A program made the position numbers. From IMG/VR virus record IMGVR_UViG_2579778634_000008, positions 1 through 27,188 of that record: DNA of 27,188 nucleotides. One strand, 5' to 3'. The stretch's first letter is position 1, and every line of letters starts with the position of its first letter. This stretch comes from a virus. Lineage: Duplodnaviria; Heunggongvirae; Uroviricota; Caudoviricetes. Below, in pieces: positions 21,001-27,000 of the stretch.

Positions 21001-24000
21001 AGTAACGCCGTAATCCGCACGCTGGGGAAAGTTAACCGCTTCCTGGCAACGGTGAACACGTCGTATAACCCGGAATTCCTGGTCAGTAACTTCATCCGTG
21101 ACGTGCAGACGGCGGTGATGAACCTGAAGGCGGAGCAGGGAAGGAGCGACGGTAAACTGAAAGGGCTGGATAACTTATCCGCCCTGGCTGTGGTGAAAGA
21201 CAGCCGGTCTGCCATGTCTGCCGTATACGCCAGTCTGCGTGGTAAAACCCTCACGGGCAACGGTGCGCAGTGGCAGAAGGTGTGGAAAGAGTTTGTTGAG
21301 GACGGAGGTAAAACCGGCTGGTTTAACATGGGTGACCTTGAAGGCCAGCAGAAGGAAATGGATCGCCTTGTATCGCTGGCGAAGGGAGGATGGAAAGGCC
21401 AGAGTATCGGTGCATGGCATTCGTTCCTGAACCTGGTCGAGGATGCCAACGGCGCGGTTGAAAACGCTCTGCGTCTTTCTGCCTATAAACACGCCCGTGA
21501 TGCCGGTTTGTCACGCCAGCAGGCGGCATCTCTTGCCAAAAACATGACGGTGAACTTTAACCGTCGTGGTGAGCAGGGAGCGCTGATGAACTCGCTGTAT
21601 ATGTTTGCCAACGCCAGCATTCAGGGGACCGCAAACCTGGTGAGAACGCTCGGACATCTTAATGGCGACGGGCCGTTACCGGAGCGCCTTCGCTGGAAGA
21701 ATCTCAATGTACCGCAGAAAATCGCGCTTGCAGCTGTGGGAGCGGGTTATCTGCTTGGCTCGCTTAACCGCAGTGTTGCGGGGGAGGATGATGACGGGGT
21801 TAACTGGTATGACAAGGTGCCGTCTCATGTGAAAGAGCGTAACCTCGTCATTATGAAATCGGTGTTCGGGGGCAAGGCCGGAGAGTACTGGAGTATTCCT
21901 CTGCCTTACGGGTACAACGTTTTCTTCCTGCTCGGGCATACTGCTGAAGGTGTGGCAGCGGGCGACCTGACTGCTTCACGTGCTGCCGGTAATGTTGTCG
22001 GTGGTATCCTGGGGGCATTCAGTCCTGTGGGCAGTGAAACGTCGGAAACACTGTCCGGGGCATTGCTGAAAAATGCAGCGCCGACCATTCTGCGTCCGTT
22101 TGCGAACCTTGCCATGAATGAAAACTTCATGGGGGCGCAGATTTACCAGGAGAACATGCCATTTGGCACACCGAAACCGGACAGCCAGCTGGGCAGACGT
22201 TCAACGCCTGAGGCGTACAAGGCGTTTGCATCCTGGCTGAATGCGTTCTCAGGTGGCAGCCAGTATCGTCCCGGCGCGGTGGATATCACACCGGAATCGC
22301 TGAAATTCTGGATTGACTATATCTCCGGAGGGACAGGGCGCTTCATTTCCAAAACCACAGATGCGGCGGTGAAATCGCTGAACGGTATTGATATACCGGA
22401 GCAGCAGGTGCCCTTCCTGGGGAAAATTTCGGGTGAGGTGATGCCGTATGCAGACCAGCAGAAGATGTACGACCGGATGACAGAGGTTGCGCAGTATCAC
22501 GCAGAGCTGAAGAGTCTGACCGGTGCAGAAAGAACGGCGTTCATTGACGAGAACAACGGAAAATTGTTGATGAACGGGCTTATGCAGGATACCCGGAAGA
22601 GACTGAAGGATTTGCGCAAACAGCGCGATGCCATTTATGCCGACAGTTCTCTCAGTCTGGCGCAGCAGGCGGCGATGGTGAAATCGGTAGAGCGGGATAT
22701 GAAGGTTGCCGTGGATCGCTTTAACCGCGAGTACAACAAAAAAGTGGGAGTGGATTAACAGAAATGGCCCCGTACGGAAGTGCGGGGCTGATTAAGAAAT
22801 AAACACACATTAACCTGTAATAACCGGAGCTATTAACATATAGTCAGAAAGAGTATTTCATGTGAGACAGAGAGCCGATTTATGTTTAATGAAGAAAAAG
22901 TTGCGTAAATGGCAGCGTATTTGCTGAAAAAACATGGCGGATCTATGCGTTTCATTAAGCTGATGTATCTCTCTGACCGCAAAGCAATGGAGTTGTATGG
23001 TTTTCCCATTAGTGGTGATCATTATTTCTCTATGAACAAAGGACCCGTTTTATCGCAGACATATTCTTTGGTTAAGGATGGAAGTGAAAACGAGTACAGT
23101 CCGTGGGAATCATGGATATCTGATGTAGCGGATCATAAGGTTGAAATGTGGCGTACATTTTCTTCTGTTGATGAGCTGGGGGAGTTATCGCCCGCAGAAA
23201 TAGAGTCAATGGACATAATTTTTGGTCAATATGGAGGTTGGGATGCGTTCAGGCTTTGTGATGAAACTCACAGAATTTGCGGTGAGTGGCGCGATCCGCA
23301 TGGTTCATCAATTCCAATCAGCCTTAAGAATATATTTATTGCTCTTGGAAAGTTGCCAGAAGCAGCAACAGTAATGGCGAATAGCATTAATGCGCAAAAT
23401 AATCTTGATATATTATTAGGTGATCTGAGGTAGTCGGGATGATGTTCAGCCCTTATTTGTATTTACCGGGGAGGGAAGATGTTTAATTCCGATTCCCCGG
23501 CTCCACAGGCCTAACCTAACTTTATGTAACAGTCCATGCAGGGCTGAAATCTGCCTGCTGAAATAACTCCGTTAGCCCGCTAATCTGCTTTAACCTCAGA
23601 ACTTCATCCTGGTCCATCCCCAGTTCTGTTCCGATACGTTCATCAGTCCAGCCAAGACGTGAAAGATCTCTGACAATATCAGACATTGAGGTTATCTGGT
23701 GTTTCCCCCTGGCTCTGTTATGTCGGATAGTCGCGGCAATACGTGAGGTTTGTCCCTTTCGGTCTGGATTAATACAGGTTACTGGTAGCCAGCCTTTCAG
23801 GCGTTTTCCAGTAACTGTTCTTCTACCTAGTAACTGCCTATGAAAACCATCCACCACCAGGTAATGGCTTGTTTCTTCCGAAACAACAATTGGTTGAGTA
23901 AAACCGTCTTTTTCCAGAGATTGTTTCAGTAATTTTTTTTCGCTTGGGGCCATGACATTGGGATTATAATCGTTAGCGACAATTTCATCCGCTTTTACCC

Positions 24001-27000
24001 ACAGCACACAGTCCACTGGTTCTTGAGCAAAGGGGCTGATCTCATGGAGTACGCAGCGGAGATGGTTCAGGGCCTGTATGGTTTTCTCTTCAGATTGTTC
24101 CTGACTGAAGTACTGTCGAATCATCTTGCTCAGCACCTCCACCTCTGGTGTCACAGAATTCCCCATTCCTTCCTCCTTTCATTCATACGCTGCAGGTAAC
24201 GTTCATAGTGCCGGGGTTTGTTGGGGCTGAAGGAGAGCGTTCGGCACCAGAAATCATTCTTTATGAGAGTCTTACAAATACGTCGCCAGGAGGGAACATC
24301 CCGGCAGCCCAGATCATTTTCCTGTTCATCCGGGATATCATCCGGGAATCCCCGGTTCTGATACCAGCGCAGGTAGACTGCTATCTTGTTGCGGTAGTGT
24401 TCAGCCGTTCTTTCCGGCATTACGTCCAGCAGGAAGAACGCATAGCTGCGCCATGTATGATGGGATGGTTTTGACATCCGTTTACGCAGGGCAAAATAGG
24501 CCCCGCTTTCATTGGCATAAAGAGCCCCACTGGCAGCACCAGATACTCGTTCACACATCCGTGCCCAAGTTTCTGGCTCCAGAACATGATAAAGCCATAG
24601 TCCCTTACGCTGTTCCGGGCCAAAAGGCTCACAGACACGCATATTATGTAGAGGAATGCCTGCACGGTACATCAAATCATACAGAGGATTGTAGATTGCA
24701 CAGGTTTTAGCGTTATATACCCAGATATCGTTGGTTTTCCAGTCATACAGCGGATACATGGTGTAGTAAAAACCTTCAGGTGACGCCGTGGTCCAGGGTT
24801 TATCATCTGCATATCTCAGTTTTCGTTGGGAAACCAGTCCCATAAATCTGTTAAGAGATTCATCCGCGCGGACTCCAGTCAGTATTGCCACGCTACATTG
24901 GTTACTTGCGAACCAGGAAGAAAAAGCTGGGACAAATTCTTCAAAAGTCATGGCGTAGCGGTAAAAGGGGAAATACGCCATATCAGTAATAGCATCTTCC
25001 GGTGGCTGTCGAACCCACTCTACACCGGGCTCCCAGCATATCCACTCAGGCTGAAACTGCGAGACACCATTTACTGTCGTCAGGGGAAGTGCAACCCAGT
25101 AAAAGGTATCTGTTACATCTTGGTACATCATCCGCATCTTCTGTATATGATCAATGGTGCATTGATACTGGGCTTCCCAGTCAATGAACAATACAGAAAA
25201 ACGACGTTTCTTCCTGTAGGCCACTTCGGCTACAAGATGGAAAAGTACAGTGGAATCTTTACCGCCAGAAAAAGATAAACATACAGAAGAGAATGTTTCA
25301 AACAACCATTCAATGCGGTGAATGGCTGCTGACAAAACATCTTCTCCAGTTCTGATTTTTGTTATAGTTACCGGCATACAATCTGATAAAAATAGCGAGG
25401 GTTTGCATTTTACCTAGTAACGTTATGTAACTATTTTTTTGAATAAAGGCAATGAGATAATGATAAAAAATGTTTATCTAATGTACTGAGCTCTTCTCTT
25501 TATTGTATTAACTCTTCGATTTCAGCGGCGTTGTCGTTCAGGTATAAAAAAAGGAGCCGAAGCTCCTTTGGTATCAGAATTCAAATTGTCTTGCCCGCAG
25601 GCTTTTCAGCATTGGTCTGGCCCGCTGAACTACGAAACTCGACTGGTCAAGCCGTGCCGCCTCTCTCAGTAGCACATCTCTGTTCTTCGTCACCATGTAG
25701 ATAGTCTCAAACGCAATGTCATACAGCTTGTTCGTGTATGAGGAGTTCAGCTCTTTCATTATGGGGTACAGCTGCTTGCTAAGGTCCTGGGCTTTTTCCA
25801 TCCAGAGCTGCATGTAGCAGAGGAGGATTATTTCCTCGGCTGTGAATTGCGGCTGTGGTTCTGCTTGTACTGGCTGAATGTTGCGAAGTTTCTTTTCGCA
25901 CTCGATGAAGTAGCGGCGTATCTGGCGGCCTTTTTCGTTACGTTCAACCATCGCAAGCTCTTTGGCTGTGTCGAGGGTGAGGTGGTAATCCTTGCGGCGG
26001 CGGCCTGGAGTTTTCGCCAAATTTGGCGAAAATAGAATGTAGTCTAAATTTTCTACGAATCCATACTCGTTTAGCCTGGCCCGTATCCAGTTAGAAAAAT
26101 CTTTACCTACCTCTAAAAATCCATGCAAATCACGCGCGTTCACCAGAAGCGTAGGTTCATTTGAGATTGTACCTTCAAACACAGGGATGAGTTGAGTGGT
26201 CATGATGACCTCCTTTGGCTTTTTTCGAGAAATGCCACCACAAGATGTGGTGCCGGGAGGCTCGAAACGGCCCAAAAGATACCGCGGACTTATTCCCCTT
26301 GCGGGTGTTGTATTCGTCGCCCTCCCGACATTGATCGGGGATGTGACCGCACACTGTGCTATCACTGAATAACAGGCATAAAAAATCCAACACTGACGGG
26401 GTTGGTTTAATCCGCTTTTGGGAGGTTTTCGAGGCCTCGGCGCGGAGTATAGTCAGTATTGGACGCAGTCGTCAACCATCGCAAGCTCTTTGGCTGTGTC
26501 GAGGGTGAGGTGGTATTCCTTGCGGTTGTGACCGCCTCTACCTTTTGCTTCCCGAATTTGGGAAGCAATCATATAGTCCTGATTTTCAACGAAACCATAT
26601 TCAGCAATACGTTCTGTTATCCACGATGCAAAGCGTTTACCAACCCCAAGGAAAGCGTGTAGATTGCGAGCATTGCATAGAAGGGCTGCTTGGTTTGAGA
26701 TAGAACCGTTGAATACGGGGATGAGTTGACTGGTCATGATGACCTCCTTATTTGTTTAGTTTATAACCGCCAGTTAGTAGCTGGCGGTCGGGTGTCAACT
26801 GAGCCAAATAAGAAGCTCTGGGCATATTCCCCTTGCGGGTGTTGTATTACGCCTCTCCACCCGACCTTTGTACGGATGTAACTATGCCAAATTGCAGGCA
26901 TAAAAAAGCCGCAAAGCTATCGGGTGCGGAGACCGCTTATTTGTTCAGTGCGATCAGTATGCGATAGCTCTGGCGGATTTGTCAAATCGTGCAGTAACAT

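Follow-up and report, generated by a model that had tools for sequence, protein, structure and literature searches.

The overlapping genes ibrA and ibrB, carried on the minus strand of a 27,188-nucleotide (nt) stretch of tailed-virus DNA (Caudoviricetes; IMG/VR record IMGVR_UViG_2579778634_000008, positions 1 to 27,188; hereafter the window), belong to a family found in phages of four or more bacterial phyla, in which the two are inherited together, point in the same direction and often have coupled translation. This family is a general phage enzyme module, and no dedicated regulator of the Eib adhesins with whose expression the pair has been associated in Escherichia coli. The best explanation of the data, which we advance tentatively, is that IbrA and IbrB, as obligate partners, make up a nucleotide-dependent enzyme module that originated in phages. 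The pair itself is already known and named; what is new is its linkage in 68 of 80 diverse viral contigs, its occurrence in cultured phages, and an uncatalogued third family, here termed X, that accompanies it in many of the viral contigs.

In the window, ibrA (24151..25377, minus strand) encodes a protein of 408 amino acids (aa) with the PP-loop SFSGGKDST, and ibrB (23522..24166, minus strand) a protein of 214 aa with the segment VVDGFHRQ. The listing of open reading frames (ORFs) agrees exactly with the initial annotation, which had described a PP-loop protein and a ParB-type protein overlapping by 16 nt (24151-24166). The Shine-Dalgarno sequence of ibrB, AGGAGG (24177-24172, minus strand), lies within the 3' end of ibrA, 5 nt ahead of the ibrB ATG; since both this sequence and the overlap sit inside the end of ibrA, translation of ibrB is probably coupled to that of ibrA. 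The equation of the pair with IbrA/IbrB is likewise borne out: IbrB is 100% identical to UniProt Q8KU23 ('IbrB'), the exact protein being present on at least 1000 contigs, and the cassette is 99.7% identical at the nucleotide level to the genes annotated in Escherichia phage PhiR5_2, whose record uses the names IbrA/IbrB, while PGAP uses IbrB-like. Furthermore, the pair displays every sequence feature that defines the IbrA/IbrB family (YbdN/YbdM; COG3969 plus IbrB-like), namely the PAPS_reduct and DUF3440 domains, the NxYNPN, DGFHR and RHNxARG motifs, and adjacent, co-oriented, often overlapping genes.

An exhaustive search yielded 327 clusters (50% identity) at E<1e-30, and loci were compared in a set of 80 diverse viral contigs with GC contents of 25-64.5%. 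In 68 of these contigs IbrA has an IbrB homologue as its neighbour on the same strand, ibrA preceding ibrB in 43 and following it in 25; the former arrangement commonly shows overlaps of 4 or 16 nt. Because the two genes recur as a unit in so many unrelated viral contigs, their pairing is far beyond chance, and the survival of the linkage through inversion of the gene order argues for a physical or functional complex. Six of the 12 remaining loci are cut by contig ends, and in the other six, internal to their contigs, IbrA stands alone. These solo genes (L070, L072, L076, L078, L080 and L082), 32-33% identical to IbrA, have flanking genes on the opposite strand in contigs that look like Bacteroidota-type prophages, and thus form a subfamily of their own. 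No further gene accompanies IbrA and IbrB universally across the 80 loci.

An additional and unexpected partner is family X, a helical protein of ~120-160 aa (typically ~140) found in 43 of the 80 loci and marked by the motifs YHPYxxWE...GM[WY] and NR.AW.GQAACC...PE..TR.AW. It occurs as a separate ORF (for example L035:3107-3490 and L061:2660-3139) or, in 13 loci, fused to the C-terminus of IbrB (as in L046:752-1885); it has no match in Pfam, PHROG or the PDB and is absent from the window. The loci with X are L012, L014, L017-L028, L030-L040, L043-L046, L048, L051, L052, L061-L064, L067, L069, L071, L073, L075, L079, L081 and L083. In a different fusion, seen in 8 loci, IbrB begins with an ectoine-synthase-like cupin domain (PF06339, 4.8e-43), giving proteins of ~295-313 aa (L061, L062 at 7305-8237, L064, L066, L067, L069, L075 and L079). 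Apparent fusions of IbrA (P0242, P0287, P0335, P0363, P0373 and others) contained no informative additional Pfam domain.

The genes that surround the pair in viruses encode mainly DNA enzymes: a gene for a SNF2-type helicase is the immediate upstream neighbour in 17 loci, and DnaB, NinG, an Erf-like protein, primase and the large terminase also recur. Cultured phages present a similar picture, the pair usually having replication or packaging genes as neighbours. Relatives of IbrA were found in 220 of their records, from phages of Flavobacterium (90), Mycobacterium (60), Streptococcus (21), Arthrobacter, Bacillus and others. In mycobacteriophage Devonte, gp4 (IbrA-like, 5e-40) and gp5 (IbrB-like, 2e-38) lie immediately upstream of the terminase; in Flavobacterium phage FCOV-F4 ibrB precedes ibrA between terminase and portal; and in Streptococcus phage PY1 the pair is situated between helicase genes and the replication module. 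In the cluster-B mycobacteriophages (Devonte, L091:1-2717), gp4 and gp5, together with an unrelated second ParB-like protein, gp1, occupy the place just upstream of the large terminase that would be expected of the small terminase. Given the spread over phages of Bacillota, Bacteroidota and Actinomycetota, a function specific to Eib or to H-NS cannot be the basic role of the family.

IbrA comprises a domain of the phosphoadenosine phosphosulfate (PAPS) reductase fold (residues ~1-240), with the PP-loop SGGKDS at 37-42 and a Trp-rich, family-specific insert at ~98-145, followed by the helical DUF3440 C-terminal domain (~240-408). It matches PAPS_reduct (PF01507, 1.5e-16) and DUF3440 (PF11922, 3.3e-33) in Pfam, and phrog_2302 ('PAPS reductase', 6.5e-86) in PHROG. 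The pairing of a PAPS-reductase-like PP-loop protein with a ParB-like one is real. In BFVD, its best match is COG3969. The structure of IbrA was modelled with AlphaFold from a 37-sequence alignment (mean pLDDT, the per-residue model confidence, 76.9), and a profile built from 36 representatives of 28-53% identity was compared to solved structures. The profile ranks CysD first (5.2e-11), then flavin adenine dinucleotide (FAD) synthase (2e-9) and CysH (9e-7), so that the proposed resemblance to DndC gives way to closer relatives at the level of the fold. The helical DUF3440 half had no solved or viral analogue.

Conservation is concentrated in the predicted catalytic core. G39, K40, S42, D66, E68, T74, W115, W121, S174, P209, D217 and Y233 are invariant in the 36 representatives; the PP-loop S-x-G-K-D-S is retained in 76 of 76 full-length viral homologues; and D66, E68, R170, E173, S174, R177, D212, W213, D217 and W219 are at least 95% conserved in the set of 77 sequences from viral contigs. 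As read from sequence, this is the pattern of an active enzyme of the type that attacks the α-phosphate of adenosine triphosphate (ATP), i.e. an adenylyl-transfer enzyme. Since IbrA combines the fold common to PAPS reductase, CysD and flavin mononucleotide (FMN) adenylyltransferase with an intact PP-loop, it binds ATP and most likely transfers adenosine monophosphate (AMP) with release of pyrophosphate. No Cys is invariant among the 36 representatives, and in the 77 sequences C378 is kept in 91%, C249 in 61%, C368 in 57% and C114 in 55%; C249, the counterpart of the catalytic Cys in the ECGLH motif of CysH, gives way to Ala or Asp in 39% of homologues. As no set of cysteines is conserved, the persulfide and iron-sulfur (Fe-S) chemistry of DndC is ruled out for IbrA.

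IbrB possesses an N-terminal nucleotide-binding domain of the ParB/Srx type, its pocket intact, with the motifs NDYNPN (65-70), DGFHR (106-110) and RHNRARGKH (148-156), and a C-terminal part resembling a helix-turn-helix (HTH; ~160-200) that probably binds DNA. Its match to Pfam ParB_N is weak (1.6e-3; 18.9 bits against a gathering score of 26.3), its assignment to phrog_2159 ('ParB-like') is strong (4.9e-91), and the HTH-like segment weakly matches phrog_6831. In a profile of 29 diverse homologues, the core aligns with Spo0J/ParB (4umk, 4.8e-5) and with Noc, the position of DGFHR being that of the nucleotide-binding GERRxR box in Spo0J; the profile also weakly matches SbnI, a serine kinase of the ParB/Srx fold (E 0.016). 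The structure model of IbrB (pLDDT 46) was unusable and was kept out of the fold search. The NxYNPN, DGxHR and RHNxARG motifs are invariant across the 29 homologues; among the viral IbrB homologues of the contig set, DGxHR is present in 68 of 68 and RHNxARG in 67 of 68. Such invariance of catalytic motifs in very distant relatives makes it unlikely that IbrA and IbrB are plain transcription factors, in keeping with the initial view of a function beyond simple transcriptional regulation.

Taken together, the invariance of the motifs, the linkage of the two genes and the DNA-centred neighbourhoods favour a model in which IbrB would be a DNA-binding partner, gated by nucleoside triphosphate (NTP), that positions or activates IbrA, by analogy to CysN-CysD and DpdB-DpdA, and in which the complex would adenylylate DNA, at the backbone or a base, and so modify it covalently. 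The reaction would be independent of cysteine or Fe-S chemistry and hence unlike phosphorothioation, and the reported increase in expression of the eib adhesin would come about further downstream, through altered DNA, through silencing or through derepression of the prophage, and would not be the main task of the pair. This division of labour, with IbrB as the NTP-gated DNA-binding subunit and IbrA as the DNA-adenylylating one, is put forward with well under even confidence. PAPS-reductase-like PP-loop proteins and ParB-like ATPases do have precedents in DNA modification, in DndC/DndB, BrxP and DpdB (PMC12839542, PMC10853773), and nucleic-acid modification by IbrAB, as first suggested from the window alone, is a reasonable hypothesis. 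The most specific version, that IbrAB, with X in about half of the phage loci, installs an undescribed, cysteine-independent covalent modification on DNA via an adenylylated intermediate under the control of a ParB/Srx NTPase, is unlikely; if true, it would account for how phage DNA is protected or handled, and also for the long-puzzling activation of prophage adhesin genes in E. coli.

Several observations weigh against the model. The six internal loci have an IbrA-like gene with no IbrB beside it, and neither a donor of the nucleophile nor a third universal component was identified in the loci examined. The DNA binding of IbrB depends on the weak HTH match to phrog_6831, and the cupin fusions and the weak SbnI match hint as readily at a small-molecule substrate. 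Lastly, the only published phenotype, as relayed in the passage of PMC6008420 that cites Sandt et al. 2002, is transcriptional, namely raised eib expression.

In E. coli the pair is common: of 5426 complete genomes, 1930 (~36%) carry a copy. A 2.1-kb region of the window is 99.7-99.9% identical to 19 complete chromosomes and to phage PhiR5_2, and a further 1920 E. coli records, chromosomal and in 66 plasmid places, hold copies at 80-90% nucleotide identity. In these 1920 the ibrA start codon is precisely where the homology stops (query 129-1979 of 23400-25500); as the homology begins and ends at the two ORFs, ibrAB travels as a cassette of two genes and nothing more, and enters unrelated contexts. 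Among them are plasmid regions ridden with insertion sequences and adjoining autotransporter pseudogenes, an O157 island and a selC island, in which a PerC-family regulator follows ibrB (directly so at L005:7647-7916 and L007:7647-7916), and an island adjoining a TonB-dependent receptor. Autotransporter genes (cah or a pseudogene) lie 1.5-5 kb from ibrAB at L002:12400-13944 and L005:653-3502. Such closeness to genes for adhesins and virulence regulators recalls the Eib story, and may be a coincidence. The K-12 paralogs YbdN (56% identical) and YbdM (61%) show the same overlapping layout and retain all the catalytic motifs; ybdN/ybdM are repressed by CitR/YbdO (PMC9068703).

PhiR5_2 is a lambdoid phage of 61.5 kb with its integrase at the left end; in it, as in the prophage of the window, the right end is 1.7-3.6 kb away from ibrAB. 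The same prophage interrupts ynfG in strain EC2, where attR, the prophage/ynfG junction, corresponds to ~27.1 kb of the window. The initial description of an accessory hotspot is thus apt for this prophage, though not for the typical location of the family. A presumed promoter region of ibrA is offered by its 172-nt, AT-rich (33% GC) intergenic leader (25378..25549, minus strand), in which a promoter scan found no convincing sigma-70 consensus. Upstream of it, a strong intrinsic-terminator-like hairpin (AAAGGAGCTTCGGCTCCTTT, followed by a T-run; 25550..25569, minus strand) ends the preceding antirepressor gene. From the hairpin and the leader, ibrAB looks like a separate transcription unit, situated in this prophage near attR.

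The neighbours named initially, a Panacea gene and antirepressors, with an adhesin gene ~18 kb away, agree in their coordinates. The Panacea/SocA-domain gene (22909..23433, plus strand; Pfam) is convergent with ibrB and has no evident toxin partner; just 19 of 1946 matching records reach into it, all from near-identical prophages, and a functional link between it and ibrAB was therefore rejected. The antirepressor genes are a tandem AntA pair (25574..26365 and 26453..26737, minus strand; Pfam) with near-identical N-termini (MT[TS]QLIPVF), the second being truncated and a PGAP pseudogene in strain EC2. The YadA-anchor (Eib-like) adhesin gene (4101..5198, plus strand), ~18-20 kb from ibrAB, lies in an AT-rich segment (37-43% GC) and is given the name Eib by no source examined. 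It encodes a rare variant, the exact protein occurring on just 3 contigs, and is a mosaic relative to its PhiR5_2 counterpart, with the same signal peptide and anchor and a different passenger. Directly preceding the accessory region is the gene for a polyvalent protein of 2787 aa (14395-22758, plus strand) with LPD38, LPD5, LPD1 and MuF_C domains, named LPD38 domain-containing protein by PGAP. The plus-strand genes at 58-960, 1330-2709, 2702-3298 and 7742-9010 include two separate tail-tip/fibre sets, the first consisting of a J-like C-terminal fragment, a collagen-repeat tail fibre and a DUF4376 assembly protein, and the second, further on, represented by a second Phage_Tail_Tip protein; a Lom gene is found at 10016-10747.

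Of the alternatives to a DNA-adenylylating complex, the one that survives best, if still rather unlikely, holds that IbrB is an NTP-switched, ParB-derived regulator, an anti-silencer or a late-gene activator, which directly activates phage and prophage genes such as eib, with IbrA as its enzymatic co-factor, for instance making or loading a ligand. A precedent exists in VirB of Shigella, a ParB-family protein that acts as a CTP (cytidine triphosphate)-dependent anti-silencer of H-NS. Such a role would accord with the RAST name 'co-activator of prophage gene expression', with the PerC-family regulator directly after ibrB in E. coli islands, and with the placement of the pair in many phages at the early/late boundary, the usual place of late activators. 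The regions upstream of ibrA (33% GC) and of the adhesin gene (38% GC) are both AT-rich, yet the DNA words they share are only 10-mers, as chance predicts, and no motif common to them rises above that level. Moreover, IbrB lacks the GERRxR CTP box, the strictly conserved catalytic core of the IbrA PP-loop domain goes unexplained, and phages of Bacillota, Bacteroidota and Actinomycetota, where there is neither eib nor H-NS, conserve the family just as well. The sole genetics does cast the pair as activators of eib expression, in what PMC6008420 relays of it.

A second alternative, which we regard as unlikely, places the chemistry on small molecules or free nucleotides: IbrA would adenylylate its substrate in the manner of CysD and FMN adenylyltransferase, IbrB would phosphorylate or hydrolyse in the manner of Srx, SerK and SbnI, and a nucleotide metabolite or a signal in phage-host conflict would thereby be produced or removed. 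The nearest solved relatives of IbrA all use small molecules (sulfate, FMN, and adenosine phosphosulfate or PAPS), the ParB/Srx enzymes include small-molecule kinases such as the weakly matching SbnI, and both the cupin-IbrB fusions and the solo IbrA genes would fit readily. Nevertheless, no conserved transporter, biosynthetic or receptor gene was found near the 80 loci, the neighbourhoods are dominated by DNA enzymes, and IbrB retains its HTH-like tail.

The earlier suggestion of a defence-related reaction, in the form of anti-phage defence or superinfection exclusion by the lysogen through a modification module akin to Dnd, Ssp or BREX type 4, fared less well and now seems quite improbable. 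In its favour are the position of the pair in the right-end accessory region of the prophage, beside the Panacea and antirepressor genes, the E. coli island copies near an OLD-like ATP-dependent nuclease and a NotI restriction-modification system, and a 2026 preprint that lists, as a lead only, untested operons near defence genes in which a YejK-like nucleoid-associated protein is joined to a PAPS reductase and in some cases also to Arc and ParBc proteins. PADLOC 2.0, however, gave no family-level match, IbrA reaching just superfamily-level similarity to BrxP (28 bits, 1.5e-7) and DndC (~20 bits, 4.5e-5) and IbrB none; no restriction or effector partner is present; and the Panacea gene, as noted above, is not co-conserved. 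The pair is instead widespread in phages, among them cultured, plaque-forming ones of Flavobacterium, Mycobacterium and Streptococcus, within replication and packaging modules, a placement that speaks for a function on the side of the phage, perhaps counter-defence, more than for defence of the host. Finally, despite the label 'phosphoadenosine phosphosulfate reductase' bestowed by PGAP and PHROG, a genuine PAPS reductase serving as an auxiliary metabolic gene of sulfate assimilation is scarcely credible and was rejected, as IbrA scores 33.1 bits against the CysH model NF002537 (cut-off 154), keeps the C-terminal catalytic Cys (C249) in just 61% of homologues, and has an intact, canonical ATP-type PP-loop, an extra domain of 170 aa and an obligate ParB-like partner.

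The wider interest of these results comes from how common the pair is. It has been known since 2002 and is present in E. coli genomes and cultured phages alike, with paralogs in K-12. It is routinely mislabelled as 'PAPS reductase' and counted in viromes as an auxiliary gene of sulfur metabolism, and the literature searched yielded no mechanistic study of IbrAB, YbdNM or DUF3440. To recognise it as a conserved phage enzyme module of two, and often three, subunits that is neither Dnd nor CysH gives the question of its chemistry a sharper form, and that question is directly testable, since the plaque-forming K-12 phage PhiR5_2 has the exact cassette and K-12 itself has ybdNM under CitR repression. 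Minor new leads come from family X and from the fusions to a cupin.

Comparison with known systems places the window pair most firmly beside IbrA/IbrB of E. coli ECOR-9, reportedly described by Sandt, Hopper and Hill in 2002 (J Bacteriol 184:3640): these are the same genes at the sequence level, with the same architecture and 16-nt overlap, and in the window the pair shares its prophage with a YadA-anchor adhesin and stands at the prophage right end in ynfG. YbdN/YbdM, in contrast, occupy a core-genome locus beside citR, whereas the window pair is a mobile cassette. A partition ParB acting as a CTPase clamp was rejected for IbrB, which has DGFHR at the position of the GERRxR CTP-binding box, scores below the ParB_N gathering threshold and has no ParA gene nearby.

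The likeness to DndC/DndB, drawn at the outset and extending to SspD and BrxP, stands only at the level of the superfamilies, as both systems unite a PAPS-reductase-like PP-loop protein with a ParB/Srx protein; every test of Dnd membership failed. IbrA scores 17.8 bits against the DndC model TIGR03183 (cut-off 290.4) and 20.6 bits (4.5e-5) against that of PADLOC, with no aligned stretch passing; IbrB matches DndB neither in NCBIfam, where its sole match is nucleoid_noc (5.4e-5), nor in PADLOC, and carries DGFHR, NxYNPN and RHNxARG where DndB has the signature DGQHR. DndC bears a 4Fe-4S site of three Cys and a Cys dyad for its persulfide/Fe-S chemistry (PMC10853773), whereas IbrA lacks a conserved triad or dyad and differs in its C-terminal domain (DUF3440). 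Neither DndA, DndD, DndE nor SspABC occurs in the window, and no such family is conserved in the 80 loci. Membership of the Dnd phosphorothioation system is thereby refuted by the DndC and DndB models, the Cys ligands and the missing DndA/D/E.

Closer are CysD-CysN and FMN adenylyltransferase, the nearest solved relatives of the IbrA core, with which it shares the PP-loop, GxRxDES-xxR and YP-x-x-DW. CysD is an adenylyltransferase that requires a partner GTPase, CysN; IbrA differs from it in the additional Trp-rich insert and DUF3440 domain, in a partner of the ParB/Srx type in place of a GTPase, and in the absence of a sulfate-assimilation context. The 7-deazaguanine DNA modification system DpdA/DpdB, in which the ParB-like ATPase DpdB powers the DNA-modifying enzyme (PMC12839542), offers a parallel for the proposed role of IbrB, and in both cases SNF2-type helicases are found nearby. 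The notion that IbrAB works like Dnd holds only in a loose sense: a PP-loop enzyme coupled to a ParB-like NTPase, for which NTP-dependent action on DNA is plausible in both systems.

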